64,000 nt of DNA from Escherichia coli (GTDB lineage Bacteria > Pseudomonadota > Gammaproteobacteria > Enterobacterales > Enterobacteriaceae), in assembly GCF_003019035.1 (NCBI RefSeq), contig NZ_CP027447.1. One strand, 5' to 3'. The position numbers and the translations under genes are program-made. Below, piece after piece: positions 3,029-47,593 of this stretch; within the stretch, counting starts at the first letter, position 1; every line of letters starts with the position of its first letter. A model generated the notes under the pieces. That model had not been told where the DNA came from. It was given only the letters and a program-made list of their open reading frames with translations, and did no database searches.

Positions 3029-3100
3029 ATATTCCGGTTGTCGCGACGGCAACATTTCGCTAAAGTCACGCCCCTTCTTCACCGGCATGGGGATTATTTC

Positions 3101-4453
3101 GTGTTTATTGGTTTTGATTACGGTACAGCAAACTGTTCAGTGGCGGTCATGCGTGACGGTAAACCGCATTTGCTAAAAATGGAAAACGACAGCACGCTGC
3201 TGCCTTCAATGCTTTGCGCGCCAACGCGTGAAGCGGTAAGCGAATGGCTGTACCGCCATCATGATGTTCCGGCAGACGACAATGAAACGCAGGCGCTGTT
3301 ACGTCGGGCGATTCGTTATAACCGCGAAGAAGATATCGATGTCACGGCGAAAAGCGTGCAGTTCGGTCTTTCTTCACTGGCACAATACATTGATGATCCG
3401 GAAGAAGTGTGGTTTGTGAAATCACCAAAATCGTTCCTCGGTGCCAGCGGCTTAAAACCGCAGCAGGTAGCGCTGTTTGAGGATCTGGTCTGCGCAATGA
3501 TGCTGCACATTCGCCAACAGGCGCAGGCGCAGCTGCCGGATGCGATTACTCAGGCGGTGATTGGTCGTCCGATCAACTTCCAGGGGCTGGGTGGCGATGA
3601 AGCAAACACCCAGGCGCAAGGGATTCTGGAACGCGCGGCAAAGCGTGCCGGGTTTAAGGACGTGGTATTCCAGTACGAGCCGGTCGCGGCTGGGCTGGAT
3701 TACGAAGCCACCTTGCAGGAAGAAAAACGGGTGCTGGTGGTGGATATCGGCGGTGGTACGACTGACTGCTCATTGCTGCTGATGGGGCCGCAGTGGCGTT
3801 CGCGTCTCGATCGTGAAGCCAGCCTGCTGGGTCATAGTGGTTGCCGTATTGGTGGTAACGATCTGGATATCGCGCTGGCGTTTAAAAACCTGATGCCGTT
3901 ACTGGGCATGGGGGGCGAAACCGAAAAAGGCATCGCCCTGCCGATTCTGCCGTGGTGGAATGCGGTTGCCATCAACGACGTACCTGCGCAAAGTGATTTC
4001 TACAGTAGTGCCAACGGTCGTCTGCTTAACGATCTGGTACGCGATGCCCGCGAACCGGAAAAAGTGGCCCTGTTACAGAAAGTCTGGCGTCAGCGTTTAA
4101 GCTATCGCCTGGTACGTAGCGCAGAAGAGAGCAAAATTGCGCTTTCAAGCGTAGCAGAAACCCGCGCCTCACTGCCGTTTATCAGCGATGAACTGGCTAC
4201 GCTGATTAGCCAGCAAGGGCTGGAAAGCGCCCTCAACCAGCCACTGGCGCGGATTCTGGAACAGGTGCAACTGGCGCTGGATAACGCCCAGGAAAAACCG
4301 GATGTCATCTATCTGACTGGTGGTAGCGCCCGATCGCCGCTGATTAAAAAAGCGCTGGCAGAACAGTTGCCGGGCATTCCGATTGCAGGCGGCGATGACT
4401 TTGGCTCCGTCACCGCCGGGCTGGCACGCTGGGCGGAAGTGGTGTTTCGTTAA
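3101..4453 (+). CDS. yegD: Hsp70/actin-like ATPase family protein YegD
   Basis: GTG start at 3101 gives MFIGFDYGTANCSVAV, a DnaK-like N-terminal phosphate-1 motif (IGFDYGT), and a 450-aa product. The ORF track has an in-frame upstream extension. Confidence 0.88.
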   Translation: MFIGFDYGTANCSVAVMRDGKPHLLKMENDSTLLPSMLCAPTREAVSEWLYRHHDVPADDNETQALLRRAIRYNREEDIDVTAKSVQFGLSSLAQYIDDPEEVWFVKSPKSFLGASGLKPQQVALFEDLVCAMMLHIRQQAQAQLPDAITQAVIGRPINFQGLGGDEANTQAQGILERAAKRAGFKDVVFQYEPVAAGLDYEATLQEEKRVLVVDIGGGTTDCSLLLMGPQWRSRLDREASLLGHSGCRIGGNDLDIALAFKNLMPLLGMGGETEKGIALPILPWWNAVAINDVPAQSDFYSSANGRLLNDLVRDAREPEKVALLQKVWRQRLSYRLVRSAEESKIALSSVAETRASLPFISDELATLISQQGLESALNQPLARILEQVQLALDNAQEKPDVIYLTGGSARSPLIKKALAEQLPGIPIAGGDDFGSVTAGLARWAEVVFR

Positions 4454-4465
4454 TTGAAAAATGGC

Positions 4466-6412
4466 TCAGCAGCGGCTTAAATCAGCCTGCGCCTGAGCCA
4501 GTTTTTCTGCCGCCTGACGTAGCGGCTCCATCAACGGCATGGTCCGTGCTGGAGCATGAAGGCGGAATCGCTGCAACTCTGTCGCACCGACAGTCAACGC
4601 CGATTCCAGCCGATGTCGTTTGGCGGCCATTTTAGTCAGTACCGCTTGTCTGTCTGCTGGCGTTACCGCTTCATTCGGCCTGAACACAAAACGGCGTTCG
4701 CAACTCGCTTTCCAGTCGATAACCGCCTGTGTCAGATGATCACCAAACCCTTTCACTTGCTTAACGCCACGACGGGTAACATCTGCGGCGGTTTCAATAC
4801 CAAAAGACCGTAACGCCGCTTTACGCGCTGGGCCTACGCCGGGAATAGAGGCAGCATCGATAAAAAATCCCTCCAGAAACTTCTGCTTCTGCCGTTCCCT
4901 TGCGTTGTCCTGAAGTGCTGCCAGAGCGCGTTTCTCCTCTTCCGGTAACCCAAGAATTTCGTCCTTCATTTTTTCGAGCATCGTCCGTTTGGCTATAAAA
5001 CCTTCCTGCCCGCCCAACTGTTGGATCTGGCTGACTAAATGGTCATAGTCCATTTTCGCGCGATTAAACGCCTCACGGCGTTGCTGGATTTCTGCTTTGT
5101 ACGCTTTGCTTGTCAGGCTGCCAATAATCCAGATAGCCGACAGCACAGGAACCAAAATAATATAACGTGGTTCTGTCTGAAGGCCGCAAAGCAACAGCGA
5201 TAACGCTGACAGTGCGATCTCAATCAGAATGATGTATTCACGCCGTAACAGGCCTAAAGGAAGCGGCCTGCCAGTCGGTTGGAAATGATCGGGTAATGGC
5301 AGTTGCAATGCTGGCGGTGCTACTGACGCCATCACCATCGCCCAGACTTTCGCCAGCACAAAATCACCGCTGGTGGTAATGACCTCTTCGCCGAGATCAA
5401 TAAAATAGATAACGCCTTGATTATCCAGAGCACACCACGGGCAGTCAGCCAAATGACCGGGATAAACATGCATTGCCGAAACGGTACATTTCTTTAACTG
5501 TTGGCGTAGTAAATCAAGTGCCGCTACCCACGCTTTTGCCGTCGGACGCCCGGTTGCCACGCCACTTTCCGTGAATGCCTGCTGAAACATGGCTTCAACA
5601 TCGCCCGGTAACATCGACAGCGGAATAGATCGTGGCGGCGGTTTTAAACCACGTCGCTGATTATCTGACGCGTAGGCATAACGGAAATGGGCAATATCCG
5701 TCTCCAGTGCATTACCCGCATCAGAGACAAGCGGTACACCGGAATAAGGATGCCGCCCACCAAACAAGACGTGAAAAATCAGCAACGCAAGGCCAAAATT
5801 ATCGTGATTCGCGGTGCGTTCAAAGCCAACAAATGACGACAAGGTTTGCAGCTCTGGCGACGTAAAATGCGACACGCCCACTTCGCATAAATGCAGCGTT
5901 CCATTGGCGTTAATCTGAAAGGAGTCGCTATCAATCAACACCACTTTGCTGTCACGGCCTACCATAAAGCTGTTCTGGTTTACGTCACCCACGACGTGCC
6001 CGTGCTCGTGAACCGTAGCAAAAGATGAAGCAATATTGCGCGCAACATAGAGGAGAAAATCCCACGCACAATGAGGGTAACTCTGACGACGATGTGCCGG
6101 GCTATAGATCATATGAATCGGTTCTTTACCTGAAACCTTCGGCATCATAAAACCGATAACCTTTCCGCCTCGTCCACCGTGAAGCGTTGCCTGCGGCCAG
6201 GCGACATAATTCAACAACTGCGCGTCAGCTGTCGCAGCCATAAAGGCAAGTTTGTCCTGTTTTAAGGCGGGTGGCGGCGTGTGATAAATCTTGGCGACGC
6301 TATCGGCAAACTCCTCGATATCATAAACCGCACCTTCACCGCCTTTGCCCAGTTCACGGCCGAGAGTGGTCAATTCACCTGTCGATGTAAATACTTTTAT
6401 ATTTGTCTTCAT
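4466..6412 (-). CDS. yegI: Atypical Ser/Thr protein kinase-like protein YegI
   Basis: 648-aa ORF. N-terminus has a kinase-like Gly-rich loop (GKGGEGAVYDI), a catalytic-loop-like HGHVVGDVNQNSF and LIDSDS. The middle is hydrophobic and predicted membrane-spanning; the C-terminal domain follows. Confidence 0.85.
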   Translation of the reverse strand: MKTNIKVFTSTGELTTLGRELGKGGEGAVYDIEEFADSVAKIYHTPPPALKQDKLAFMAATADAQLLNYVAWPQATLHGGRGGKVIGFMMPKVSGKEPIHMIYSPAHRRQSYPHCAWDFLLYVARNIASSFATVHEHGHVVGDVNQNSFMVGRDSKVVLIDSDSFQINANGTLHLCEVGVSHFTSPELQTLSSFVGFERTANHDNFGLALLIFHVLFGGRHPYSGVPLVSDAGNALETDIAHFRYAYASDNQRRGLKPPPRSIPLSMLPGDVEAMFQQAFTESGVATGRPTAKAWVAALDLLRQQLKKCTVSAMHVYPGHLADCPWCALDNQGVIYFIDLGEEVITTSGDFVLAKVWAMVMASVAPPALQLPLPDHFQPTGRPLPLGLLRREYIILIEIALSALSLLLCGLQTEPRYIILVPVLSAIWIIGSLTSKAYKAEIQQRREAFNRAKMDYDHLVSQIQQLGGQEGFIAKRTMLEKMKDEILGLPEEEKRALAALQDNARERQKQKFLEGFFIDAASIPGVGPARKAALRSFGIETAADVTRRGVKQVKGFGDHLTQAVIDWKASCERRFVFRPNEAVTPADRQAVLTKMAAKRHRLESALTVGATELQRFRLHAPARTMPLMEPLRQAAEKLAQAQADLSRC

Positions 6413-6612
6413 AATGTTTCAAGGGCAGTCATATTATATTTCAATGAATAATAACACTTCCCATTATAATTATTTCTATATTGGAAGAGTCCAACTCAAG
6501 AATAAAAATGATAATGCAATTTCATCAGGATACAATTCAATTCCAACCTGATAATGATTCACTTCCACAGGTTTTTTGCTAACTTTTACTACACAGGGAT
6601 TCTGGAGAAAAA

Positions 6613-7074
6613 ATGAAAAAGATATTACTTATGTTGAGTCTGCTATTTTTTACTACCGCAAGCTATTGTGAGATTTCGGATACGTTAGTGACAGGAGGTT
6701 ATGATAAAAAGGCGATGTCTGACGCGATTAAACATGCGCGGAAAGAAACCGATCAATTCATCGAAGTTATGAATAAAAAAGATGCTGATACTTTCGCGGT
6801 CAAAGCCCCGATAACCGATCGCGGAGAAACCGAGCATTTCTGGCTCACGGATGTCACTTATTCTAACGGCATGTTTATTGGTATAATAAGCAATGACCCT
6901 GGTATTGTTACAAACGTAGAATATGGCCAGGAGTGGAAAATCAAGAAAGAAGATATTTCAGACTGGATGTATACGCGCGGGGATAAAATTTACGGTGGTT
7001 ATACCATTGATCCTTTATTGGTCACCTATCCAAAAGAAGAAGCCGACGAGCTAAGAGCAAAATTAGTTCGCTAG
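6613..7074 (+). CDS. yegJ: Secreted protein of unknown function YegJ
   Basis: 153-aa ORF with an N-terminal signal peptide (MKKILLMLSLLFFTTASYC). The gene and flanking spacers are visibly AT-rich; an AGGAG-like RBS lies upstream. Confidence 0.8.
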   Translation: MKKILLMLSLLFFTTASYCEISDTLVTGGYDKKAMSDAIKHARKETDQFIEVMNKKDADTFAVKAPITDRGETEHFWLTDVTYSNGMFIGIISNDPGIVTNVEYGQEWKIKKEDISDWMYTRGDKIYGGYTIDPLLVTYPKEEADELRAKLVR

Positions 7075-7101
7075 CCAGCCATTATATTGATTGCTTAAAC
7101 T

Positions 7102-7129
7102 GGCGGTTGAACCGTTGTATTCAACCGCC
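7102..7129. terminator. Bidirectional hairpin terminator between convergent yegJ and pphC
   Basis: Perfect 10-bp inverted repeat GGCGGTTGAA / TTCAACCGCC with an 8-nt loop, seen directly. Confidence 0.6.
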
Positions 7130-7138
7130 ATGCGATGT

Positions 7139-7900
7139 TCATTCTGTCCACATAGCCAGTGCTAACGTTTTATCATCATCGGTACGCTCGTTTACCGCTG
7201 GGCTGGACAAAAACTGCTTTAACAATTCAGGTAATAAATCGAGTTGTTCCTGCGTTGCTGACGCCAGTCCATTGAAAAACGGGGTAAAGAAAGGCACATG
7301 CGGAGAATTATCCAGCATATTTAACGCCAGTCTCTGAATACCATCCGTAAATGCTGCAACTCTATGCGCACGCTCAGTGCTGGTGAAAGTTTCCAGTCTG
7401 AAAACGGCATCTTCATCGGTAATGAAATGCGTCATGTTGGCATATTCACCCACCATCGGCGTGAGAGGCAATTGCAGACCGTGACCCAAATCTACCACCA
7501 CGCCGCCATCGCCAATCTGCATAATCAAGGTGCCGTCAGGCGATGAAATCAGTCCCAGAAATGTGCAGGCAAAATCGCGAACCGCTAATTCTTTGGCTTC
7601 CGCCTCGGCAAAAAGTCGCTGACGAACGGTCAGCACAATATCCGTTGCGAGGACATCATTAAGCCCCAATTCCCCGCCCTGCACTTTTTGCATCATATAA
7701 GCCATCGCTTCATTGACGGCAAGCGTCGCACCTTCGCCACCCTGCGAAACGCTGCCTGCGCCATCAGCGACAAATACCGTCAATAATGGCTGCTGGTCTT
7801 CTAGCCAGGCAACCTGCATCTGGCAGGCATCCTGGCAAGGCAAGTCCGCGCTGATGTGCGACGTTCCAACGGTTGATGCATAGACCAGACGCCAGCTCAC
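7139..7900 (-). CDS. pphC: PP2C-family Ser/Thr protein phosphatase PphC (YegK)
   Basis: 253-aa ORF. Start overlaps the yegL stop by 4 nt, indicating translational coupling. PP2C-like Asp/Gly-rich motifs ([16 protein letters not shown]). Confidence 0.85.
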
Positions 7901-8556
7901 ACTGACGTCCAGCCTTTTGGCGCTTCCAGCACAACTTCCGTTCCCGGCGTGGAGCGGGAAACCGAACGCAGCGAACTGGATAACCAGCTAAATAGTTCGC
8001 GGAATTGTAATCCTTGAAGAGGCAAAGGCTGACGAACGCTGATTTGGGCCAGCGTCTTCATATCCGCCCCCTGAACACCGATGGAAAAGAAGGCAAACTT
8101 CTTATCTTCTTCCCCCTGAAACACCTTGTTGGCAGCAGCCTGCCACTCATCGGTTGGTGCGCCATCGGTAATCAGGAAAATCCACGGACGATAATAGGAA
8201 ATACCATTGGCGCGATACTCACGTTTGCGCTCCTCAACCATATTCAGGGCTTTGGTAATGGCGGCGCCCATTGGTGTATCCCCATGGGCAAACAGGATGG
8301 GCGGGAAAAAATTAGCGGCGCTGGTAAAGGGTTGTTCCACATGCACTGGGCCGAACGTCACAATACCGAGTTCCACTCTTTTTAAGGCCAGCGGGTCGGC
8401 AAGCAGCTCATCGCGAAAGGTAACCAATCCGGCGTTAAGTTCATTAATGGGTCTACCGTTCATAGAACCAGAAACATCCAGCAGCAAAATGCAGGGGCAA
8501 CGTGGTTCCGGGTTACTGGCAAAATCGCTGGTGGCAAACGTGATTTGTTCGCTCAT
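7897..8556 (-). CDS. yegL: von Willebrand factor A domain protein YegL
   Basis: 219-aa ORF with a MIDAS DxSxS motif ([11 protein letters not shown]) and a downstream ITDGAPTD motif typical of vWA domains. Confidence 0.85.
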
Positions 8557-8737
8557 AAGAAATCCTTTCTTAGAGAATTATTGAGGTCCGGTATCATACC
8601 GATTGCAATAATGAAATAAGAGCAAACGAAGAAACTTTCAGAATTAGGCCCGGCGGCGCAGAAAATTTTGCTATTCGCCTCGCAAGAACGGAGAGCCGTC
8701 GATTGACACTAAGGGCGGAGTGACATAATTTCAGGAG

Positions 8738-8886
8738 TGAGGGTTAGGGAGAGGTTTCCCCCTCCCCCTGGTGTTCTTAGTAAGCCTGGAAGCTAATCAC
8801 TAAGAGTATCACCAGTATGATGACGTGCTTCATCATAACCCTTTCCTTATTAAAAGCCCTCTTCTCCGGGAGAGGGTTTCCCGTTT
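8738..8886 (+). ncRNA. sibA: Sib antitoxin sRNA, unit 1 (SibA-like); ends approximate
   Basis: Sigma70-like promoter TTGACA(8703-8708)-N17-TAATTT(8726-8731); the transcript is fully antisense to ibs unit 1; hairpin at about 8856-8877 followed by TTTCCCGTTT. Confidence 0.65.
8777..8836 (-). CDS. ibsA: Ibs type I toxin, 19 aa (MMKHVIILVILLVISFQAY)
   Basis: Hand translation of the minus strand; it is a hydrophobic peptide that matches my memory of IbsA. Confidence 0.8.
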   Translation of the reverse strand: MMKHVIILVILLVISFQAY

Positions 8887-9072
8887 CAGCGTCCCGCTGA
8901 AATCGTCGGCTTACCTCCTTTCGCCCTGAATGCAGTCTATCGCTAACGCGTGAACAAAATAGTTTCCTCTGTGATTATTCCGTAACGACTCGCAAAGAAT
9001 ATTTGCTGGCAGGATCGCAGACTACAAAGCCTGCGGATTGACAATCTTATCGTGAAGGCATAATTTCAGGAG

Positions 9073-9216
9073 TGAGGGTAGAGCGGGGTTTCCCCCGCCC
9101 TGGTAGTCTTAGTAAGCGGGGAAGCTTATGACTAAGAGCACCACGATGATGAGTATCTTCATCATGACCCTTTCCTTATTTATGGCCCCTTCCTCGGGAG
9201 GGGCTTTCCCGTTTCA
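9073..9216 (+). ncRNA. sibB: Sib antitoxin sRNA, unit 2 (SibB-like); ends approximate
   Basis: Promoter TTGACA-N17-TAATTT(9061-9066), antisense to ibs unit 2, GC hairpin at about 9184-9204 plus T-rich tail. Confidence 0.65.
9109..9165 (-). CDS. ibsB: Ibs type I toxin, 18 aa (MMKILIIVVLLVISFPAY)
   Basis: Hand translation of the minus strand; IbsB-like. Confidence 0.75.
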   Translation of the reverse strand: MMKILIIVVLLVISFPAY

Positions 9217-9400
9217 GCGTCCCGCTGAAATCGTCGGCTTACCTCCTTCTGTCCTGTATGCAGTCTATCGCTGACTTGCGGATAAAATAGTTTCCAATGT
9301 GATTATTGCGTAACGTCTCGCAAAGAATATTTGCTGGCAGGATCGCAGACTGCAAAGCCTGCAGATTGACAATATTATCGTGAAGGCATACTTTCAGGAG

Positions 9401-9543
9401 TGAGGGTAGAGCGGGGTTTCCCCCGCCCTGGTAGTCTTAGTAAGCCGGGAAGCTTATGACTAAGAGCACCACGATGATGATCCACTTCATCATGACCCTT
9501 TCCTTATTTAAGGCCCCTTCCTCGGGAGGGGCTTTCCCGTTTC
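9401..9543 (+). ncRNA. Sib antitoxin sRNA, unit 3 (additional copy); ends approximate
   Basis: Promoter TTGACA-N17-TACTTT(9389-9394), antisense to ibs unit 3, GC hairpin at about 9512-9532 plus T-rich tail. Confidence 0.6.
9437..9493 (-). CDS. Ibs type I toxin, 18 aa (MMKWIIIVVLLVISFPAY), third copy
   Basis: Hand translation of the minus strand; IbsB-like variant with W at position 4. Confidence 0.7.
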   Translation of the reverse strand: MMKWIIIVVLLVISFPAY

Positions 9544-9700
9544 AGCGTCCCGCTGAAATCGTCGGCCTACCTCCTTTTGCCCTGAATGCAGTCTATCGCT
9601 AACGCGTAGATAAAATAGTTTCCTGTGTTATTACTGGATGCGTGCTCGCAAATGTGCCCGCCATTCAGACGATTCCCGATAGTGTTTCATAATTCCTCCA

Positions 9701-9718
9701 TTTTTCTCCCTGATTGGC
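9701..9718 (+). promoter_or_regulatory. BaeR box in mdtA promoter (TTTTTCTCCCTGATTGGC)
   Basis: Matches the remembered BaeR consensus TTTTTCTCCATDATTGGC at 17 of 18 positions; lies about 55 nt upstream of the mdtA ATG. Confidence 0.6.
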
Positions 9719-9771
9719 TGGCTACACTAGTATCATTCCGCGAAACGTTTCAGGAAGAGAAACTCTTAACG

Positions 9772-11019
9772 ATGAAAGGCAGTTATAAATCCCGTTGGGT
9801 AATCGTAATCGTGGTGGTTATCGCCGCCATCGCCGCATTCTGGTTCTGGCAAGGCCGCAATGACTCCCGGAGTGCAGCCCCAGGGGCGACGAAACAAGCG
9901 CAGCAATCGCCAGCGGGTGGTCGCCGTGGTATGCGTTCCGGCCCATTAGCCCCGGTTCAGGCGGCGACCGCCGTAGAACAGGCTGTTCCGCGTTACCTCA
10001 CCGGGCTTGGCACCATTACCGCCGCTAATACTGTTACGGTGCGCAGCCGCGTGGACGGTCAACTGATGGCGTTGCATTTCCAGGAAGGCCAGCAGGTCAA
10101 AGCTGGCGATTTATTGGCAGAAATTGACCCCAGCCAGTTCAAAGTTGCATTAGCACAAGCCCAGGGCCAACTGGCAAAAGATAAAGCCACGCTTGCCAAC
10201 GCCCGCCGTGACCTGGCGCGTTATCAACAACTGGCAAAAACCAATCTCGTATCTCGTCAGGAACTGGATGCCCAACAAGCGCTGGTCAGTGAAACCGAAG
10301 GCACCATTAAGGCTGATGAAGCAAGCGTCGCCAGCGCACAGCTGCAACTCGACTGGAGCCGCATCACCGCACCAGTCGATGGTCGCGTTGGTCTCAAGCA
10401 GGTTGATGTTGGTAACCAAATCTCCAGTGGTGATACCACCGGGATTGTGGTGATCACCCAGACGCATCCTATCGATTTGCTCTTTACCCTGCCGGAAAGC
10501 GATATCGCTACCGTTGTGCAGGCGCAAAAAGCCGGAAAACCGCTGGTTGTTGAAGCCTGGGATCGCACCAACTCGAAGAAATTAAGTGAAGGCACGCTGT
10601 TAAGTCTCGATAACCAAATCGATGCCACTACCGGTACGATTAAAGTGAAAGCACGCTTTAATAATCAGGATGATGCACTGTTTCCCAATCAGTTTGTTAA
10701 CGCGCGTATGTTAGTCGACACCGAACAAAACGCCGTGGTGATCCCCACCGCCGCCCTGCAAATGGGCAATGAAGGCCATTTTGTCTGGGTGCTGAATAGC
10801 GAAAACAAGGTCAGCAAACATCTGGTGACGCCGGGCATTCAGGACAGTCAGAAAGTGGTGATCCGCGCAGGTATTTCTGCAGGCGACCGCGTAGTGACGG
10901 ATGGCATTGATCGTCTGACCGAAGGGGCGAAAGTGGAAGTGGTTGAAGCTCAAAGCGCCACCACTTCGGAAGAGAAAGCCACCAGCCGCGAATACGCGAA
11001 AAAAGGAGCGCGCTCCTGA
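9772..11019 (+). CDS. mdtA: RND efflux membrane fusion protein MdtA
   Basis: ATG at 9772 gives [23 protein letters not shown] (N-terminal TM anchor), 415 aa. The ORF-track start at 9625 is an in-frame upstream extension. Stop overlaps the mdtB start. Confidence 0.9.
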
Positions 11020-22171: not shown

Positions 22172-23533
22172 ATGTTTAAACCGGAACTCCTTTCCCCGGC
22201 GGGAACGCTGAAAAATATGCGTTACGCTTTCGCTTATGGCGCAGATGCTGTTTATGCGGGCCAGCCGCGTTACTCCCTGCGTGTGCGCAACAACGAATTC
22301 AACCACGAAAATCTCCAGCTCGGCATCAATGAAGCCCACGCGCTGGGGAAAAAGTTTTATGTCGTGGTCAACATTGCACCGCACAACGCCAAGCTGAAAA
22401 CCTTTATCCGTGACCTGAAACCGGTGGTGGAGATGGGGCCGGATGCGCTGATTATGTCCGATCCAGGGCTGATTATGCTGGTGCGCGAGCACTTCCCTGA
22501 AATGCCGATCCACCTCTCGGTGCAGGCTAACGCCGTGAACTGGGCGACGGTGAAATTCTGGCAGCAAATGGGACTGACCCGCGTGATCCTCTCTCGCGAG
22601 CTGTCGCTGGAAGAGATTGAAGAGATCCGTAATCAGGTGCCGGGTATGGAGATCGAGATCTTCGTTCACGGTGCGCTGTGCATGGCCTACTCCGGTCGCT
22701 GCCTGCTCTCTGGCTATATCAACAAGCGCGACCCGAACCAGGGCACCTGCACCAACGCCTGCCGCTGGGAGTACAACGTCCAGGAAGGGAAAGAAGATGA
22801 CGTTGGCAACATCGTGCACAAGTACGAGCCGATTCCGGTGCAAAATGTTGAGCCGACGCTGGGCATCGGCGCGCCAACCGACAAAGTGTTTATGATCGAA
22901 GAAGCTCAGCGTCCGGGCGAGTATATGACTGCGTTTGAAGATGAGCACGGCACTTACATCATGAACTCGAAAGATCTGCGCGCTATCGCCCACGTTGAAC
23001 GCCTGACCAAAATGGGCGTGCATTCGCTGAAAATCGAAGGTCGTACAAAATCTTTCTACTATTGCGCACGCACCGCGCAGGTTTACCGTAAAGCTATCGA
23101 TGACGCAGCTGCGGGAAAACCATTCGATACCAGCCTGCTGGAAACTCTGGAAGGTCTGGCGCATCGTGGCTATACCGAAGGTTTCCTGCGTCGTCATACT
23201 CACGACGATTATCAGAACTACGAATACGGTTATTCAGTTTCTGACCGCCAGCAGTTTGTTGGTGAGTTTACCGGTGAGCGCAAGGGCGACCTCGCGGCGG
23301 TAGCGGTGAAAAATAAATTCTCCGTTGGCGACAGCCTTGAGCTGATGACGCCGCAAGGGAACATTAACTTTACCCTTGAGCATATGGAAAACGCCAAAGG
23401 TGAAGCTATGCCGGTCGCACCAGGCGATGGTTATACTGTGTGGATCCCGGTGCCGCAGGATCTTGAGCTAAATTACGCGCTGCTGATGCGTAATTTCTCC
23501 GGGGAAACCACGCGTAACCCCCACGGTAAGTGA
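22172..23533 (+). CDS. yegQ: U32-family peptidase-like protein YegQ (TrhP)
   Basis: 453-aa ORF starting MFKPELLSPAGTLKNMRYAFAYGADAVYAG; U32 family by remembered homology. Confidence 0.9.
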   Translation: MFKPELLSPAGTLKNMRYAFAYGADAVYAGQPRYSLRVRNNEFNHENLQLGINEAHALGKKFYVVVNIAPHNAKLKTFIRDLKPVVEMGPDALIMSDPGLIMLVREHFPEMPIHLSVQANAVNWATVKFWQQMGLTRVILSRELSLEEIEEIRNQVPGMEIEIFVHGALCMAYSGRCLLSGYINKRDPNQGTCTNACRWEYNVQEGKEDDVGNIVHKYEPIPVQNVEPTLGIGAPTDKVFMIEEAQRPGEYMTAFEDEHGTYIMNSKDLRAIAHVERLTKMGVHSLKIEGRTKSFYYCARTAQVYRKAIDDAAAGKPFDTSLLETLEGLAHRGYTEGFLRRHTHDDYQNYEYGYSVSDRQQFVGEFTGERKGDLAAVAVKNKFSVGDSLELMTPQGNINFTLEHMENAKGEAMPVAPGDGYTVWIPVPQDLELNYALLMRNFSGETTRNPHGK

Positions 23534-23617
23534 TTCATTTCGATTATTTTTCCCGGATGGAAAATTCTTAGAAACCGATCACATACAGCTGCATTTATTA
23601 AGGTTATCATCCGTTTC

Positions 23618-23704
23618 GCTGAAAAACATAACCCATAAAATGCTAGCTGTACCAGGAACCACCTCCTTAGCCTGTGTAATCTCCCTTACACGGGCTTATT
23701 TTTT
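23618..23704 (+). ncRNA. cyaR: CyaR (RyeE) Hfq-dependent sRNA
   Basis: Sequence GCTGAAAAACATAACCCATAAAATGCTAGCTGTACCAGGAACCACCTCCTTAGCCTGTGTAATCTCCCTTACACGGGCTTATTTTTT matches CyaR as I remember it, including the terminator hairpin and U-tail. Confidence 0.85.
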
Positions 23705-23861
23705 ATACATAAGCCGTATCCTGGTAACCGTCTTCCATTGACCACATCGATAGAATCTCCCCTCATAGCACGATGCCTTTCACTTATTGGCATCGTGCTC
23801 GCACAGGTTCCGGTTACGCACAGCCAGAACGCGCATGTTTGACGCTTACCAAAAAATATTC

Positions 23862-24179
23862 TCACTCTCCACATTTGAATGTCAGACGAGCGACGCCATG
23901 TAATCCTGCACCTTCTGTCTTCAGGTCAACTATCTGCATTTTTTTTCCCTGAGTAACACAGAAATGAACTGCATCATTTTTTACTATATTTTCTGCACCA
24001 GATATTCTACCCCTGGCTAAAGAAGCTTCGGCTTCGGTGTAGTATTGGTTATCGAGTTTACGCTGGATATTACTTTTATAGGCAAGACCGAATTTACCGA
24101 TACTTGTCTCATCATTATGCACAGCACAACCAGACATAAGAAAAACACTAATTAATGATATAGCAGCTATCTTTTTCAT
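23862..24179 (-). CDS. yegR: Putative lipoprotein YegR
   Basis: 105 aa from the internal ATG (MKKIAAISLISVFLMSGCAV), with a signal peptide and lipobox-like MSGC. The ORF track extends to 24239. Confidence 0.8.
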   Translation of the reverse strand: MKKIAAISLISVFLMSGCAVHNDETSIGKFGLAYKSNIQRKLDNQYYTEAEASLARGRISGAENIVKNDAVHFCVTQGKKMQIVDLKTEGAGLHGVARLTFKCGE

Positions 24180-24593
24180 CTTACCTTCCCCCATTAAATA
24201 CCAACGACACGCTCTGGTGTTTAAATATAATAATGGCATGATTATTATATTTGAATAGGATTATAATAAATGTTCTGTACAACATTTCCTACATAAGTAG
24301 GAATTACATACACGGATGCCCTTCCGGGTAACCCCATGGGGGGGTTAATATATTTTTAATAGTATATTGAAGATGCCACTGTTTAGTTGAATATTAGGTA
24401 TATGCTCTTTTTTGAAATTTATCGGTGGCTGCCGTTAGTATTCGCTGTCCCCATTGCAAGCTCCTGGTGGTAACCACTGAATCTTCCATACTTGAACTGA
24501 CTTTTTATCCTCCGACTTTCATCCTGTTCTGACTCTACCTTTTCTTTTCTGCTCTACACTATCTACAGACCAATCATAAAGGCACATACGATC

Positions 24594-25493
24594 ATGGCAG
24601 AATTTCCCGCCAGCTTACTGATTCTTAATGGCAAAAGTACTGACAATCTACCCCTGCGCGAAGCAATTATGCTGTTGCGTGAGGAAGGAATGACGATCCA
24701 TGTGCGGGTCACCTGGGAGAAAGGCGATGCCGCACGATATGTAGAGGAGGCCCGGAAGTTGGGCGTCGCAACGGTGATTGCCGGTGGTGGCGATGGCACC
24801 ATTAATGAAGTTTCTACGGCGTTGATTCAGTGTGAGGGGGATGACATACCCGCGCTGGGAATTTTGCCATTAGGAACCGCCAATGATTTTGCCACCAGTG
24901 TAGGGATTCCTGAGGCACTGGATAAGGCGCTGAAACTGGCAATTGCCGGTAACGCCATTGCGATAGATATAGCGCAGGTCAACAAACAAACCTGTTTTAT
25001 TAATATGGCGACAGGCGGATTTGGGACGCGTATTACCACAGAAACGCCGGAAAAATTAAAAGCCGCGCTGGGTGGCGTCTCTTACATCATTCATGGCTTA
25101 ATGCGCATGGATACTCTGCAACCGGACCGTTGTGAAATCCGCGGTGAAAACTTTCACTGGCAAGGTGACGCCCTGGTCATTGGTATTGGTAACGGGCGTC
25201 AGGCTGGTGGCGGTCAGCAATTGTGCCCGAACGCGTTAATTAACGATGGCTTGCTGCAACTGCGCATTTTTACCGGCGATGAAATTCTTCCGGCTCTCGT
25301 ATCAACCTTAAAATCTGACGAAGATAACCCGAATATTATCGAAGGCGCTTCGTCGTGGTTTGATATACAAGCCCCACACGAAATCACTTTTAATCTTGAT
25401 GGCGAACCGTTGAGTGGGCAAAACTTCCATATTGAAATACTTCCGGCGGCGTTGCGTTGTCGATTACCACCAGATTGTCCATTATTGCGTTAA
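24594..25493 (+). CDS. yegS: Lipid kinase YegS (DAG-kinase catalytic-domain family)
   Basis: 299-aa ORF with the GGDGT motif ([12 protein letters not shown]). Confidence 0.9.
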
Positions 25494-41490: not shown

Positions 41491-41829
41491 ATGACCATTA
41501 AAAATAAGATGTTGCTGGGTGCGCTTTTGCTGGTTACCAGTGCCGCCTGGGCCGCACCAGCCACCGCGGGTTCGACCAATACCTCGGGAATTTCTAAGTA
41601 TGAGTTAAGCAGTTTCATTGCTGACTTTAAGCATTTCAAACCAGGTGACACCGTACCAGAAATGTACCGTACCGATGAGTACAACATTAAGCAGTGGCAG
41701 TTACGTAACCTGCCCGCGCCTGATGCCGGGACGCACTGGACCTATATGGGTGGCGCGTACGTGTTGATCAGCGACACCGACGGTAAAATCATTAAAGCCT
41801 ACGACGGTGAGATTTTTTATCATCGCTAA
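41491..41829 (+). CDS. rcnB: Periplasmic Ni/Co homeostasis protein RcnB
   Basis: 112 aa from the ATG at 41491 with a signal peptide (MTIKNKMLLGALLLVTSAAWA). The ORF-track start at 41296 is an upstream extension. Confidence 0.88.
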   Translation: MTIKNKMLLGALLLVTSAAWAAPATAGSTNTSGISKYELSSFIADFKHFKPGDTVPEMYRTDEYNIKQWQLRNLPAPDAGTHWTYMGGAYVLISDTDGKIIKAYDGEIFYHR

Positions 41830-41857
41830 AAAAAGCCCCCTCGGAGAGAGGGGGAAA
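41828..41857. terminator. Hairpin terminator between convergent rcnB and yehA
   Basis: A-run, then CCCCCTC-GGAGA-GAGGGGG hairpin; the T-run on the minus strand makes it most effective for the yeh operon. Confidence 0.65.
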
Positions 41858-41910
41858 TGCAAACACCTTGTTATTTTTTATTATTAGCCACTTGCTCGTC
41901 TTGCTTATTA

Positions 41911-42945
41911 TTAGTCGTATTTCACATTGATTAATGCGGTTGCCTCCAGTGCGCCAGATTTAACTTTGTTTGTATCGTAAACGTAGTAACTGGCCGTTAT
42001 CGGAATTGAAACCGTTGTATCTGTAAGTTTTGACTTTGCCGCAATTTCTTTTAAATTTGTATATCCTTTACTGCTGTTAGTGATATTTAAAAGTGTGACT
42101 GGCGTACCATTACTTTCAAGAATAAATCCTACGCCATTATCTTCCGCACCTTTCAGGATCGTGTTGCTGTTGGTTAACAAGTCAGAACTTGATAAATACA
42201 CCTGCATTTTCCGTGATGTTTGATTTTGTTGACCTAATAAGTTTTTACAACGCAGAACAATATCCCCTTTGTTACTATTTATTGTTGCTTTGTTACCTGT
42301 AGCTGGTAATTGTGAAACGGGAATACTCTCTAAAGTAATTAATAAATCGTCCGGTTTGCAGGTTGTGGTTATCGGGTTGTATGACAATGTCAGATTAAAG
42401 GAATAGACACCTGCATTTTGTGCCAATGCATTTCTGTAGCTATTTACACATGCATCCCATGACTTACCACCTAATAAACACAGTAGAAATTGTACTGCGG
42501 CACTCCCGCGTGTCGATGATGAAGCACTGGATAATGTCGCAACTCCATTAATCATCACTGAACCACCGCCTCCCGCAGAAACATTCACTTTTGCATTACT
42601 GGCCGCAGGTGTCACCGTTACCGAATAACCACTGGTGAAACTGGTCTGATTATTTGACAACGTAATGTTGTTTTTATTGGTCCATTCAAAATGTAAATTT
42701 AATTTAATGGTATCGTTATAAAGTCCAACAATAATATCCGACGGGCTCATAGGGGTGATAGTATTTGTACTCACGCATGACGAATCATTAAAATTATGCT
42801 CATATGTCGCCATTTGTGTTTGAGTAAGTGAAAAATCCCCCTGAACAACCAAATTGTGCTGAACAGATAACTCACTATAACATGCCGCATAGCTCACAGG
42901 CATAACCATCATCATTACTATAAATAGCATTATGCGAATTTCCAT
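41911..42945 (-). CDS. yehA: Fimbrial adhesin-like subunit YehA
   Basis: 344-aa ORF with a signal peptide, low GC, last gene of a chaperone-usher operon. Confidence 0.85.
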   Translation of the reverse strand: MEIRIMLFIVMMMVMPVSYAACYSELSVQHNLVVQGDFSLTQTQMATYEHNFNDSSCVSTNTITPMSPSDIIVGLYNDTIKLNLHFEWTNKNNITLSNNQTSFTSGYSVTVTPAASNAKVNVSAGGGGSVMINGVATLSSASSSTRGSAAVQFLLCLLGGKSWDACVNSYRNALAQNAGVYSFNLTLSYNPITTTCKPDDLLITLESIPVSQLPATGNKATINSNKGDIVLRCKNLLGQQNQTSRKMQVYLSSSDLLTNSNTILKGAEDNGVGFILESNGTPVTLLNITNSSKGYTNLKEIAAKSKLTDTTVSIPITASYYVYDTNKVKSGALEATALINVKYD

Positions 42946-42960
42946 AGAACCACCTGACTA

Positions 42961-45456
42961 TTACTGGCAAATATAATTTCTACTTTCATCAATCTCTTTA
43001 CCGAAGGTGATTGTGCATGAAAGCCCTTGTTGCTTATCAATTGCCACATTAACCGATGGCGGTACTTCATTGGTGCGAATAAATAACTGGCTTCCCTGGC
43101 CGACAACACCAATATTATGACCATGGATATCATTGACTTCATAACCAAACGTTAATGGTTGCCCATCCGCTCTTAACGCTTTTATAAACCATGGCTTGCG
43201 CTGATCGGTATCAAAATTAACCAGTACAACCGCGCCGCGATAAGGGGCGGCAATTTTCCGGTTGCCACGTAATTCTGCTTCGCTATCGCTTTGTGACACA
43301 TCCAACATCAGGTAATTTTCCCGATAAGGTGTCATTCCGTCATATACCACCACTCCATTACGGTTTGTTGTGTGATATTTTTGCCCATTGACATAAGCAT
43401 CTTTAATTCCTGGCGCATTCATCACAGCAAACGTTTCAGAAAGACGGTTTGCCAGATTAACGCCACCCGACCAGGCGACAATGCCCCCTGAAACACTGGC
43501 TCCAGCCTGTCGATAAGCACTCGACTGACTATAACTGCCATTCACTGTCGCAACCGGCGCGTTCCAGGTTAAATTCGCCCCAGCTGTCGTTTCATTTCCC
43601 TGATACTGATAACTCAGGTTGACCCCATAGTTAAACTGATCCCGGCTTCCAACGGTTCCTGATAATCCCGTATTATTTGAGGCAACCCCCTGATCATCAA
43701 ACGTCGTTGAGTTAGACATATATATTTGCCGACGAGGCGTCGTAACGTCATCACCCCAATCAAAGGGAATCGATATAAAAATATTAAAACGTTTCTCTTC
43801 ATGATGATTCTCGTCATAAGCCTGGCTTGCCGCGAGGGTATAGCTTATCCGTCGTAGGTTGTTGGAATAACTCAACTGATAATCCTTACTACTGCCGCTA
43901 CGCCCCCAGTAATCTCGCCATAACGTACTTAATGACACAGAACCCCAGCCTTCTGGCAATGACTGGCTCATATTAGCAGAAAAGCTATTTTTACGGCCAA
44001 AATCGTTCTGGTAATAATCGGCAATGTCATAGATATCGTTTTCATCACGGCGATAATTATCTTTATTGTTTGCCCAAACGTGATCGTTAAATGTCCGGTA
44101 ATCACGCGACGAATAACGCCAGGCCGCCAGACCAAAACGCGTCGACGTTTGGCTCACAAATTTGTTGTAGGCAATTTGATAACTTTGCCCGTCAAACACA
44201 TCGCCGTTGTCTTGTTTACTATGCGACTTCGTGGCATCGACGGAAATGGCACCAATGCGTGTATTCCAGCCAGTCCCCAAAGTGAACGCGTAATAATTAT
44301 TCGCGACCATCGATCCGCCATACAGCGTCAATAAGTTATTAAAACCATACTGATAACCCGCCTGAACAAAATCACTTTGTTTGCTCGCCCCTTCAATATG
44401 GCTACGACCTGCCGCAAAATCATATTTCGACACGCCGGGTTGCAGCATATTCGGCACTGCTGCATAAGGCACCAGATAGGTGGTTACCGAACCGTCCGCC
44501 TCTTTCACGCTGACATCAAGATCTGCTCCACCACCGGCCAACTGCAAATCTGTAATCGCAAACGGGCCAGGAGGAACCTCTTTCTGATAAACCACAAAAC
44601 CGTTCTGTTCAATAGTTACCAGCGCGTTACTCTGAGCAATCCCCTGCACCCGTGGCGTAAAATTCTGTTTCGAGTTAGGCAACATCTGCATATCACGAAA
44701 CAACCGCACACCGCTGAAGCGAACAGAATCAAAAATATCGCTTGATGTGTACATATCACCCACGCGAAGCGTGCCGAGAAGTTGGGCAAATCCACGTTCC
44801 AGATACAGGGTATTGCTTTTCCACACCCCTGGATTGCTATTTGTTTTACTGAAACTGGCATCAGAATGCAGTTGCCACCCCAGTAAGTTTAACCCGCTGT
44901 TAAAACGTACATATGTACTCTTGCTATTACCCGACGCTTTATAGTCGCTGTAATACTGACTCACATAATAAGAGGTATAAAACGCATTAATACCCCGCTC
45001 CCAGTTTTCCGGTGGAACATAGCCACTTTCCAGTTCTTCCACCCACGCCTGCGGGACACTGAAATCGAGACGAAAAACTCCGATATCCCAGGTATAGCTC
45101 CCACCCTGAACAAGTTGCTCAAATGTTAAACATTGCTTACCGCTGGCAAAGTTATCGGTATTAATGCCTAACCGCTTGATAATTTCCCTTGATAAACATG
45201 TTTCTTGCGGGTTGTCTTTAACAATAATCTCATATTTCCCGCGCCATTGCTTATTGACATAAATATCGATGTCATACTGCCCCGGCAAGGGTTGATTATC
45301 ATCAAGACGAATATTTGCAACCTGCTGGTCTTTCATTCCACCTATCATAAAATGGGTATCAAAGGTTTCTTCAGCTGCATAAGCTTCAATGCCGAGCAAT
45401 AACGCTACGATTGCTGATGCAAGTGGGGTCATTCTCAACATAGGCAGCTCCTGCAA
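42961..45456 (-). CDS. yehB: Fimbrial outer-membrane usher YehB
   Basis: 831-aa ORF, usher-sized, Tyr/Gly/Asn-rich beta-barrel composition. The true start may be an internal Met 5 codons in. Confidence 0.88.
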   Translation of the reverse strand: MQELPMLRMTPLASAIVALLLGIEAYAAEETFDTHFMIGGMKDQQVANIRLDDNQPLPGQYDIDIYVNKQWRGKYEIIVKDNPQETCLSREIIKRLGINTDNFASGKQCLTFEQLVQGGSYTWDIGVFRLDFSVPQAWVEELESGYVPPENWERGINAFYTSYYVSQYYSDYKASGNSKSTYVRFNSGLNLLGWQLHSDASFSKTNSNPGVWKSNTLYLERGFAQLLGTLRVGDMYTSSDIFDSVRFSGVRLFRDMQMLPNSKQNFTPRVQGIAQSNALVTIEQNGFVVYQKEVPPGPFAITDLQLAGGGADLDVSVKEADGSVTTYLVPYAAVPNMLQPGVSKYDFAAGRSHIEGASKQSDFVQAGYQYGFNNLLTLYGGSMVANNYYAFTLGTGWNTRIGAISVDATKSHSKQDNGDVFDGQSYQIAYNKFVSQTSTRFGLAAWRYSSRDYRTFNDHVWANNKDNYRRDENDIYDIADYYQNDFGRKNSFSANMSQSLPEGWGSVSLSTLWRDYWGRSGSSKDYQLSYSNNLRRISYTLAASQAYDENHHEEKRFNIFISIPFDWGDDVTTPRRQIYMSNSTTFDDQGVASNNTGLSGTVGSRDQFNYGVNLSYQYQGNETTAGANLTWNAPVATVNGSYSQSSAYRQAGASVSGGIVAWSGGVNLANRLSETFAVMNAPGIKDAYVNGQKYHTTNRNGVVVYDGMTPYRENYLMLDVSQSDSEAELRGNRKIAAPYRGAVVLVNFDTDQRKPWFIKALRADGQPLTFGYEVNDIHGHNIGVVGQGSQLFIRTNEVPPSVNVAIDKQQGLSCTITFGKEIDESRNYICQ

Positions 45457-46131
45457 TTAAATTTTGTCACTAATATAGTTGCCATGGTCATCGATAATGG
45501 TCAGATGCCAGTTATTCGCATTATTACTTTTGACATTAATACTCTGACTTTCTAAGGGGGCAATCATAATAGTTTCATAATTGACTTTGACATTATTAGC
45601 TTTGACATCCGAAATCGTCACCCAATTTGCTGAGTCATTTTTTATCACCAATCCATTGCCACTGCGATTTACCCGTAACTTTTTAAATGTCGCTTTATTT
45701 ACCGGTGCAATACCCGCAGGCCGGTAAAACAATTTGATTCTGTTTTGCATTGCAAATTTCAGTGCATTCTTGCCCTCTTGCTCTGGACTATTTGGTGGAA
45801 TATCCAGAACATTCAGATAAAAAATGCTCTCTTTATTAGTGGGCAGTTTATTCGGCATAATTTTGATTTTTACTTGCTGCCCGGAATTTGCCCCTATTTT
45901 TGCCACTGGTGGCGTTAACATGAAAGGAACCTGAATTTTTTCTGGTGGTAACGACGTATCACCATCATCAATCCACGCCTGCAGCAGCGAAGAACGGTTT
46001 CCCTGATTCATCAACTGCACCATCACTTCTTTATTTTCTGCCGGGTAAATAATACGCGTCCCGTAGATAACAATACCGGCATGTGCAGGAAGGACCATAG
46101 AAGAAATGAGTAAAGCAAATAATCCTTTCAT
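45457..46131 (-). CDS. yehC: Fimbrial periplasmic chaperone YehC
   Basis: 224-aa ORF with a signal peptide, PapD-like size, in operon context. Confidence 0.85.
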   Translation of the reverse strand: MKGLFALLISSMVLPAHAGIVIYGTRIIYPAENKEVMVQLMNQGNRSSLLQAWIDDGDTSLPPEKIQVPFMLTPPVAKIGANSGQQVKIKIMPNKLPTNKESIFYLNVLDIPPNSPEQEGKNALKFAMQNRIKLFYRPAGIAPVNKATFKKLRVNRSGNGLVIKNDSANWVTISDVKANNVKVNYETIMIAPLESQSINVKSNNANNWHLTIIDDHGNYISDKI

Positions 46132-46211
46132 CTTAATGCCTCTTAAATTAAAAGGCCGCCATGGGGATAGCGGCCATGTTTATTACCTGGAGAAACTTGA
46201 AATTTTATTTA

Positions 46212-46754: not shown

Positions 46755-46976
46755 AATATGTTCCTTAATAAAATTTATTTTTTGGTTGTTAAGAGTCTGT
46801 ATCTCTTGGAAACAAATTTCTCACATCAAAAAAGTTGCTGCAATGTAAACATATTGTTTTATTGATTTAAAACAAATTAACTATTGCAATATAAATACAA
46901 CAAATACTTAAGCATATTAAATATTTATCACATCTATTAATTAATGCGGATTTTTGTAAATGGTATTATTGATATC

Positions 46977-47016
46977 AATAAAAAAGCTGAAATCATTCAC
47001 ACGAATGATTTCAGCT
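46977..47016 (-). terminator. Rho-independent terminator downstream of yehE
   Basis: Perfect 14-bp inverted repeat AGCTGAAATCATTC / GAATGATTTCAGCT followed on the minus strand by a T-run. Confidence 0.7.
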
Positions 47017-47049
47017 TTCTAAATCCGATTAAAAAACCAGGGTGGCAAA

Positions 47050-47331: not shown

Positions 47332-47522
47332 TGAACGTTATCCCTGTAGTAAAGGTTATGCCTGGATAGAATGAGTGCATAACAAACTATAGCTGTACAT
47401 CCACTACACAGCCACGAAGGATGATAATGAAGCATTGCCTGTACGATCAATCGACTTTATAGAGTTTCGGACGAAGGTCCGCAGAATATTTGCAGCATTA
47501 AATAAGTGTTCATTAATGCGGC

Positions 47523-47565: not shown

Positions 47566-47593
47566 GAAAAACAACCAAAAAGGTTAATACGCG

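Follow-up and report, generated by a model that had tools for sequence, protein, structure and literature searches.

We analyzed a 64,000-nt stretch of Escherichia coli DNA (contig NZ_CP027447.1; hereafter the window), in which the small gene yegJ lies between yegI, encoding a Ser/Thr kinase, and pphC, encoding a PP2C phosphatase. We consider it highly probable that yegJ belongs to a 786-bp accessory segment that splits the pphC-yegI gene pair, that the split arrangement is the derived state, and that the segment is silenced by H-NS. An earlier note, made from the sequence alone, had described an AT-rich yegJ island at positions 6413-7138; comparison with strains that lack yegJ shows that the island reaches past these limits, to 6362-7147.

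The gene order at the locus is alkA-yegD-yegI-yegJ-pphC-yegL-ibs/sib-mdtA. Positions 6300-7250 are 100% identical to E. coli strain SCU-301, and the open reading frames of the window sit at positions matching the RefSeq annotation of that strain, which lists alkA, yegD (+), yegI (-), yegJ (+), pphC (-), yegL (-), three ibs toxins and mdtA. Pfam analysis of the window proteins identifies YegJ as DUF2314, PphC as PP2C_2, YegL as VWA and YegD as HSP70. At the empty sites of strains NCTC86 and O157, yegI starts 4 nt before the end of pphC, within an ATGA stop/start overlap, and yegL-pphC-yegI form one tightly packed operon. The TCAT at positions 7139-7142 of the window is a vestige of this overlap. 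The start of yegI and the end of pphC differ from their empty-site counterparts (Table 1), and identity to the empty-site yegI returns abruptly at the codons for GRELGKGGEG. The junctions and the 17-codon yegI start are identical in all five yegJ-positive alleles inspected, namely those of the window, of strain 042, of a K-12-like strain and of two further strains, and these common junctions argue for a single origin.

The earlier note had named the presence or absence of yegJ across strains as a check, and the gene proved to be polymorphic: a megablast search with the island alone recovered it from 1,924 of 5,426 complete E. coli genomes (35%), whereas the flanks of the island were matched in 5,405 of the 5,426. 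The island is chromosomal in every carrier and normally present as a single copy. The yegJ allele of the window is rare, with at least 99% identity in 30 of the 1,924 yegJ-positive genomes, and is 93.4% identical to that of K-12. In strain PCP06021 (L094 2748-3445), an IS1 element replaces most of yegJ, leaving the last ~30 nt and the adjoining downstream spacer, a case of secondary loss.

To polarize the two states we used a PphC scan with one genome per species, which yielded 79 loci spanning other Escherichia lineages, Klebsiella spallanzanii, Burkholderiales, Pseudomonas, Frankia, Myxococcota, Paenibacillus, Planctomycetota and others. YegJ homologs were sought at these loci by tblastn, and none was found at a PphC operon (0/79). 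The kinase gene lies 3′ of the phosphatase gene on the same strand in 75 of the 79 loci and within ~150 bp of it in 74, with a median gap of ~10 bp. E. whittamii, two further Escherichia species, strain E69 and K. spallanzanii keep both the ATGA overlap and an MKxxLYT-type kinase start. Because the coupled junction is common to empty-site E. coli and the outgroups, this comparison identifies the contiguous operon as ancestral and the yegJ-bearing state as derived and confined to part of E. coli. The only other interruption among the 79 loci occurs in a Melainabacteria genome (L085 6784-7977); this 1.2-kb gap between phosphatase and kinase was ruled out as a yegJ-like insert, as it contains a co-directional TPR-repeat gene.

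The stretch 6413-7138 has a guanine-plus-cytosine (GC) content of 37.9% against a mean of 50.7% for the whole window (standard deviation 5.0% for segments of 726 bp), and differs from the 2 kb on each side (51.7% and 50.4% GC; chi-square p = 8e-11). The earlier observation that the yegJ coding sequence and both flanking spacers are AT-rich relative to their neighbors is thus upheld. Only 1.4% of 726-bp segments are as GC-poor, all of them within three other AT-rich stretches. By part, the yegI-yegJ spacer (6413-6612) has 30.0% GC, the yegJ coding sequence (6613-7074) 40.3% and the 3′ spacer (7075-7138) 45.3%. The GC content at the first, second and third codon positions of yegJ (GC1, GC2 and GC3) is 0.45, 0.35 and 0.41, and its GC3 is the fourth lowest among 41 open reading frames and below the 0.54 of the four flanking genes (Fisher p = 0.003). 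The earlier note had pointed to GC content and codon usage as a pair, and the two gave different answers: GC and GC3 set yegJ apart from its flanks, but its synonymous-codon typicality is ordinary, at the 45th percentile of 152-codon segments of the window. The use of typical synonymous codons implies that the low GC of the island comes largely from amino-acid composition, as reflected in GC1 and GC2, and from the spacer. In addition, all hosts examined have a yegJ richer in AT than its flanks, by 10-12 GC points in Superficieibacter-like genomes. Given this ordinary codon choice and AT-richness in all hosts, low GC alone gives no date of acquisition.

The proposal that the island is H-NS-silenced DNA is supported by published data. 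The spacer between the divergent yegI and yegJ genes of K-12 was reported to bind RNA polymerase holoenzyme and H-NS in genomic SELEX (systematic evolution of ligands by exponential enrichment) (Shimada et al. 2014, PMC3946193). In an hns mutant of strain 042, the gene EC042_RS12365 was reported to be up 223-fold at 25 °C and 6.4-fold at 37 °C, and it is listed among the most derepressed genes of that mutant (Prieto et al. 2020, PMC7582179). We checked this tag and found it to be yegJ at the present locus; the spacers of the window and of strain 042 differ at 3 positions (~99% identical). A promoter scan of the window predicts a sigma-70 yegJ promoter with the same hexamers as those listed for K-12 in PMC3946193 (ATGATA-17-TACAAT), and the yegJ -10 element and ribosome-binding site align with those in Superficieibacter. 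For yegI, the same source gives TTGTTA-18-TATAAC in K-12. This exact pattern was not found in the window, in which a weaker variant is the candidate yegI promoter, with a predicted leader of ~9 nt.

Two points weigh against our account of the locus: the H-NS evidence comes from K-12 (SELEX) and strain 042 (RNA sequencing), alleles other than the window's own, and the yegI promoter proposed here is a predicted, weak candidate. A scan for the H-NS high-affinity motif TCGATAAATT gave one site with a single mismatch inside yegJ, which is not above background.

The 3′ spacer contains the strong hairpin that the earlier note had seen between the convergent yegJ and pphC genes, and its presence is borne out. 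The stem is perfect over 11 bp (7101-7111 pairing with 7120-7130) around an 8-nt loop. For the + strand the predicted free energy is -17.9 kcal/mol (z -4.1), and for the - strand it is -20.5 kcal/mol (z -6.1). Across five alleles the stem is invariant and the loop and flanks are variable. The note had called the hairpin bidirectional, and a bidirectional terminator would be a possible role; a GC-rich stem-loop of the Rho-independent type is present. Against this role, the hairpin lacks a U-tract, the + strand continuing with AUGCGAUG and the - strand with AGUUUAAG, which offers only UUU; a terminator scan did not call the hairpin at 7101-7130. Without a U-tract, the hairpin is at most a candidate terminator. 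A search of positions 6000-9800 with Rfam found no RNA family in the island.

We propose the following explanation for how the segment affects the operon. It carries yegJ on the strand opposite to the operon, with its own predicted promoter and ribosome-binding site; it also contains a 200-bp spacer of 30% GC, a stable hairpin and AT-rich codons that replace the usual 5′ end of yegI. The insert would abolish the translational coupling of yegI to yegL-pphC and probably its co-transcription as well. Because the ATGA coupling is lost, and pphC and yegI are now separated by a stable hairpin and a convergent gene, yegI is expected to be transcribed from the H-NS-covered spacer, and its transcription from there would uncouple kinase and phosphatase. 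Expression of the kinase would rely on a weak promoter within DNA covered by H-NS, and the kinase/phosphatase ratio would no longer be fixed. Regulatory disruption by yegJ had been suggested earlier by Dworkin's group, who are reported to have found it untestable because the locus is barely expressed.

Table 1. Features of the yegJ locus, with positions in the window
Feature	Position	Strand	Remarks
Whole variable segment (true extent of the island)	6362..7147	.	786 bp vs 50 bp in yegJ-less E. coli; from alignment with the NCTC86 and O157 empty sites
yegI, Ser/Thr kinase, 648 aa	4466..6412	-	Cut off from pphC in this haplotype
Rewritten yegI 5′ end	6362..6412	-	17 AT-rich codons, 33% GC; MKTNIKVFTSTGELTTL vs MKPTLYTATGECVTP in empty-site strains
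Divergent yegI-yegJ spacer	6413..6612	.	30% GC; probable H-NS nucleation and promoter region
Candidate yegI promoter, GTGTTA-18-TATGAC	6428..6457	-	Weaker variant of K-12 TTGTTA-18-TATAAC
Predicted sigma-70 yegJ promoter, ATGATA-17-TACAAT	6508..6536	+	Promoter scan; hexamers as in K-12
Shine-Dalgarno GGAG	6604..6607	+	5 nt before the yegJ ATG; kept in Superficieibacter
yegJ coding sequence, 153 aa	6613..7074	+	DUF2314 (Imm34), Pfam PF10077; RefSeq "YegJ family protein"
Signal-peptide-like N-terminus, codons 1-19	6613..6669	+	MKKILLMLSLLFFTTASYC; apparent degenerate lipobox, Cys19 kept, Tyr at -1
Hairpin	7101..7130	.	Between convergent yegJ and pphC; 11-bp perfect stem, 8-nt loop
pphC stop and last two codons	7139..7147	-	TE here (TE or AE in yegJ-positive alleles) vs LP in empty-site strains
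pphC (PP2C phosphatase, 7139-7900) and yegL (vWA protein, 7897-8556)	7139..8556	-	Upstream two-thirds of the interrupted three-gene operon; Pfam PP2C_2 and VWA

Close homologs of yegJ within the Enterobacteriaceae were found only in E. coli and two Superficieibacter-like genomes (75% amino-acid identity). In Superficieibacter electus and the related metagenomic genome, yegJ immediately follows yegD in the same orientation, with mdtA beyond it, and these genomes lack the yegL-pphC-yegI operon. On this basis, the segment probably reached E. coli, or moved within it, by recombination from a relative that already carried yegJ in the yegD-mdtA interval, as Superficieibacter does. The sharply diverged yegI start suggests that the junction arose in a lineage other than the Escherichia sampled here; a 61-aa N-terminal query for a donor of this variant start matched only short E. 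coli fragments. Parts of yegI and all of yegL in the window are 100% identical to yegJ-less NCTC86, and such mosaic flanks imply that the two junction states move between backgrounds by homologous recombination. Several observations weigh against acquisition from outside. Outside E. coli, we found no donor in which yegI, yegJ and pphC are arranged in this way; the 17 initial codons of yegI are 45% diverged beside flanks of 95-100% identity, for which a simple insertion does not account; and at the nucleotide level yegJ shares 75-76% identity with its Superficieibacter counterpart, as against 77-79% for its neighbors yegD and mdtA, a similar divergence that fits old shared ancestry as well as it fits transfer. 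From the sequence comparison, yegJ may be an old enterobacterial resident of the yegD-mdtA interval rather than a recent import. The separate acquisition proposed in the earlier note is supported, with qualifications: the island is polymorphic, derived and absent from ~65% of genomes, but neither a donor nor a mobility signature turned up, and its codon choice is ordinary.

If the yegI-yegJ-pphC order were itself ancestral, most E. coli would have lost yegJ by deletion. The position of the Superficieibacter gene in the same chromosomal interval with core-like divergence would agree with this, as would the several E. coli allele classes 5-7% apart, a sign of an old haplotype. It is nevertheless very unlikely and already contradicted by the outgroup comparison: the junction is contiguous and yegJ-less in four other Escherichia lineages, in K. 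spallanzanii and in 74 of the 79 loci; a deletion would not restore the exact ATGA overlap or the MKPTLYT N-terminus shared with the outgroups; and the Superficieibacter yegJ is unconnected with the three-gene operon. A related possibility involves no import at all. Here yegJ would be an old vertical resident of the yegD-mdtA interval, enclosed by local rearrangement in a later-arriving yegL-pphC-yegI operon, and its low GC would reflect protein or regulatory constraint. Its divergence from Superficieibacter equal to that of the core flanks, its unchanged strand relative to yegD, its AT-richness in all hosts, its typical codons and the lack of a mobility signature are all what such a history would leave. 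We regard it as unlikely all the same, since the restriction of close Enterobacteriaceae homologs to E. coli and Superficieibacter-like genomes would require many independent losses, the other sampled Escherichia lineages have the operon without yegJ, and no simple rearrangement both puts yegJ between pphC and yegI and rewrites the yegI start. A 78-nt patch of yegJ that is nearly identical between E. coli and S. electus, and not in the second Superficieibacter-like genome, points further to exchange between lineages.

The discrete 786-bp indel with sharp ends and ATGAA microhomology at both could also recall small mobile elements, for example derivatives of insertion sequences, miniature inverted-repeat transposable elements or integron-type cassettes. 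The hallmarks of such elements (recombinase gene, terminal repeats, target-site duplication and multiple copies) are missing from the island: it has no transposase, integrase or terminal inverted repeats, a repeat search at the segment ends found no terminal repeats or target duplication beyond the ATGAA microhomology, and the island normally occurs once per genome, at the same site, across the 1,924 genomes. There are no genuine plasmid or phage copies either; in a tblastn search of plasmids and phages, the close matches were limited to chromosomes of 4.9 Mb wrongly labelled as plasmids and to a single 365-kb E. coli record matched in part, with none in phages. The sole insertion sequence seen is the IS1 that destroyed yegJ in one strain. 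As terminal repeats were not found, we dropped this idea, which we hold to be the least probable of those considered. A derived segment that arrived or spread by recombination thus remains our preferred account of the locus.

The patch shared with S. electus covers window positions 6925-7002 (yegJ codons 105-130), with 4 differences from S. electus (L007 8313-8390) and 12 from the second Superficieibacter-like genome; outside these codons, yegJ is 20-35% diverged from the Superficieibacter-like genes. Nucleotide-level constraint on codons 105-130 was ruled out by the 10 synonymous changes in the second genome, and the comparison suggests a recombination patch common to E. coli and Superficieibacter. 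Two clusters of diverged YegJ sequences, P0011 and P0024, were set aside, since they proved to be ordinary E. coli contigs, truncated at a contig end and gene-fragmented, respectively. Beyond the island, window positions 3100-9700 (yegD-yegI-pphC-yegL) are unusually diverse and mosaic among E. coli strains, with 85-100% identity per 150 nt and blocks that match one strain at 100% and another at ~92%. Variation is greatest in PphC, which in strain E69 is only 82% identical at the amino-acid level. The window yegJ also has a private, more diverged 5′ coding patch at 6661-6886 (ASYC vs AGFS; DRGETEH vs DHGRTEH) beside a spacer like that of strain 042.

YegJ matches Pfam PF10077 with 89.7 bits (gathering cut-off 22; E 2.4e-25) over residues 33-146. 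An ExxW motif is present as TEHFW, and E74, F76, W77 and D117 are invariant in an alignment of 25 sequences; we took D117 to be the conserved C-terminal Asp of Imm34, although which Asp Zhang et al. meant is uncertain. The fold is Tudor/SH3-like. In the AlphaFold model, residues 9-23 have a predicted local distance difference test score (pLDDT) below 50 and the region from ~30 to 153 is confident (mean pLDDT 87). Neither the family profile run against the PDB nor a search of NCBIfam gave anything significant.

The earlier note had predicted a 153-aa product with a cleavable signal peptide, and a signal-peptide-like layout is indeed present (MKKILLMLSLLFFTTASYC). MKK, with two lysines, is followed by ILLMLSLLFFTTA, a hydrophobic core of 13 residues with a top 10-residue Kyte-Doolittle mean of 3.0, and small residues at T14/A16, T15/S17 and S17/C19 would allow cleavage after A16, S17 or C19. 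The positively charged n-region, an h-region longer than the minimum of 10 residues and small side chains at -3 and -1 together give the layout of a Sec-type signal peptide. Of 85 close non-enterobacterial homologs whose N-termini are complete, 81 show a hydrophobic stretch that ends in [GAS]-Cys, a lipoprotein signal, and 4 have signal-peptidase-I-type ends. Since its relatives are almost all lipoproteins, YegJ is probably exported, to the periplasm or anchored in a membrane, a conclusion that we hold with some reserve. In the enterobacterial branch, the lipobox cysteine is preceded by an inserted aromatic residue. The allele in the window keeps the ancestral cysteine, which the common E. coli allele has replaced by Ser. 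We infer that YegJ is no longer a canonical lipoprotein.

This reading conflicts with the report of Gopel et al. 2026 (PMC13232886), in which two-hybrid and pull-down assays show YegJ binding to the catalytic, cytoplasmic domain of RNase E. That report and the sequence of the N-terminus itself are objections to export: a lipobox of the form [LVI][ASTVI][GAS]-Cys is present neither in the window (T-A-S-Y-C) nor in the common E. coli allele (A-G-F-S), which has no Cys. Were YegJ a cytoplasmic partner of RNase E, its hydrophobic N-terminus would not be an export signal. The 48 two-hybrid clones covering residues 16-153, the positive pull-down with RNase E 1-529 (PMC13232886), the Tudor/SH3-like fold and the isolation of the DUF2314 protein PA2504 of Pseudomonas aeruginosa as a partner of the RNA pyrophosphohydrolase RppH (PMC8466066) are in line with such a role. 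However, most of the signal sequence is missing from the two-hybrid clones, and fusion to T25 keeps the protein in the cytoplasm. The classification of YegJ as cytoplasmic in the text of the 2026 paper was taken from database annotation, without measurement. Lipoprotein or secretory N-termini occur in 85 of the 85 close non-enterobacterial homologs. Furthermore, overproduction of YegJ-Strep with its native N-terminus was reported to induce the Cpx and Psp responses and to make the inner membrane leaky, with rRNA decay largely due to periplasmic RNase I (PMC13232886), and this envelope stress and leakage fit an overloaded export pathway. We therefore give the cytoplasmic assignment little credence and retain export as the better reading. 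That two DUF2314 proteins have each been found with RNA-decay enzymes (PA2504 with RppH, PMC8466066; YegJ with RNase E, PMC13232886) may be a coincidence or may hint at a cytoplasmic role of the domain.

If expressed, YegJ, as an exported member of a lipoprotein branch of DUF2314/Imm34, could act as an envelope binder or as an immunity-type protein. We find the latter role doubtful, as an assignment made from family membership, for which the gene neighborhood in S. electus gives partial support. In E. coli, yegJ has no toxin or polyimmunity neighborhood, its neighbors being yegI and pphC, and immunity genes adjoin yegJ in S. electus, but not in the second related genome or in three distant genomes. 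No conserved partner gene was found near the three distant homologs, where recurring GDSL lipase genes are probably a coincidence. The S. electus yegJ-mdtA interval (L007 8914-13261) contains an RHS-repeat fragment, a SUKH protein, Tli3, a Tle3 C-terminal fragment and Imm52; these effector/immunity remnants are all on the strand opposite yegJ and are missing from the related genome (L087). A bolder synthesis would make YegJ an exported orphan Imm34 protein directed against a periplasm-acting toxin, place a TerY-P-like kinase under H-NS through the insert, treat the two operon states as an old balanced polymorphism and explain the RNase E interaction as an artefact of cytoplasmic retention. We consider this combination improbable as a whole.

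Elsewhere in the window, the interval between yegL and mdtA contains a tandem set of three known Sib antitoxin RNAs on the + strand (Rfam RF00113, 141-150 bits), at 8703-8851, 9038-9180 and 9366-9508, opposite the ibs type I toxin genes; they were the only hits of the Rfam search described above. The strains compared have either 2 or 3 Sib/ibs copies. Other AT-rich stretches occur at ~23500-24800 and ~41500-47700, with 726-bp segments down to 34% GC. Judged by synteny with strain 042, the open reading frames at 41911-46754 on the - strand (GC3 0.35-0.44) represent the yehABCD fimbrial operon.

Much about yegJ is already published, namely the gene itself, the indel between K-12 and B, the H-NS site, the derepression in an hns mutant and the Imm34 assignment. 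In the literature available to us, the 35% frequency, the outgroup polarity, the extent of the segment with its rewritten gene ends, the syntenic Superficieibacter copy and the lipoprotein ancestry that argues for export are not stated. K-12, the reference strain for work on YegI and PphC (kinase activity has been reported for YegI; 10.1101/819920), has the derived, minority form of the operon, with the kinase cut off and beside H-NS-bound DNA. Findings on the expression and stoichiometry of the pair should therefore not be carried over between K-12 and the ~65% of strains with an intact operon. The family-wide lipoprotein signal peptide argues for a role in the envelope and bears on the 2026 report of a cytoplasmic RNase E partner, and export would offer a simple alternative explanation for the toxicity of overproduced YegJ. 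The locus is also a clean natural case in which one gene silenced by H-NS interrupts an operon with translational coupling. In practical terms, the consequences are modest.

The nearest known counterpart is yegJ of K-12 (b2071, UniProt P76394), in which the gene, locus and junctions are the same as in the window; the alleles differ at Cys19 (ASYC), which is Ser (AGFS) in the common K-12-type allele. The location of yegJ between pphC and yegI on the opposite strand in K-12, and the 4-nt ATGA overlap in REL606 and O157:H7, were described by Rajagopalan, Nagle and Dworkin 2018, Rajagopalan and Dworkin 2020 and Gopel et al. 2026. The published accounts of this indel, in the text available to us, restrict yegJ to K strains, whereas we find it in 35% of complete genomes, strain 042 included. 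DUF2314 corresponds to Imm34, a predicted immunity-protein family of polymorphic toxin systems with an ExxW motif (Zhang et al. 2012, PMC3482391). YegJ resembles this family in its significant Pfam match, its mostly beta structure and its ExxW signature, and the S. electus yegJ adjoins an RHS fragment and SUKH, Tli3 and Imm52 genes. It differs in that E. coli yegJ has no adjoining toxin gene or polyimmunity array, and in the lipoprotein-type signal peptide of the YegJ branch, a feature that the descriptions of Imm34 accessible to us do not mention. The immunity function of Imm34 is a computational prediction, and the available literature that we searched contained no toxin-neutralization experiment with a family member. 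PA2504 of P. aeruginosa has two domains (DUF2314-DUF2185, that is, Imm34-Imm33) and no signal peptide, whereas YegJ has a single domain and a secretory N-terminus.

The host operon, as distinct from yegJ, resembles the TerY-P triad of vWA protein, PP2C phosphatase and Ser/Thr kinase (Anantharaman et al. 2012, as summarized in PMC10542128). The genes yegL, pphC and yegI have the same content and order, kept across phyla and adjacent as in the triad (order kept at 75/79 loci), but in the window the insert separates the kinase. A further difference is that Pfam finds no zinc-ribbon or OB-fold at the YegI C-terminus, where there is only a weak HhH match. The PADLOC defense models, curated TerY-P systems included, returned no match for YegJ, YegL or PphC, and for YegI only weak matches to PD-T4-6 and MkoA. 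To our knowledge, no defense phenotype has been attributed to yegL-pphC-yegI. Compared with the H-NS-silenced xenogeneic genes of E. coli and Salmonella, the yegJ island differs in comprising one gene in 786 bp, with no integrase or tRNA anchor, and in its location inside an operon; it resembles them in its low GC, its patchy distribution, the H-NS binding reported for the K-12 promoter spacer and the strong derepression reported for the strain 042 hns mutant, which is more marked at 25 °C than at 37 °C.

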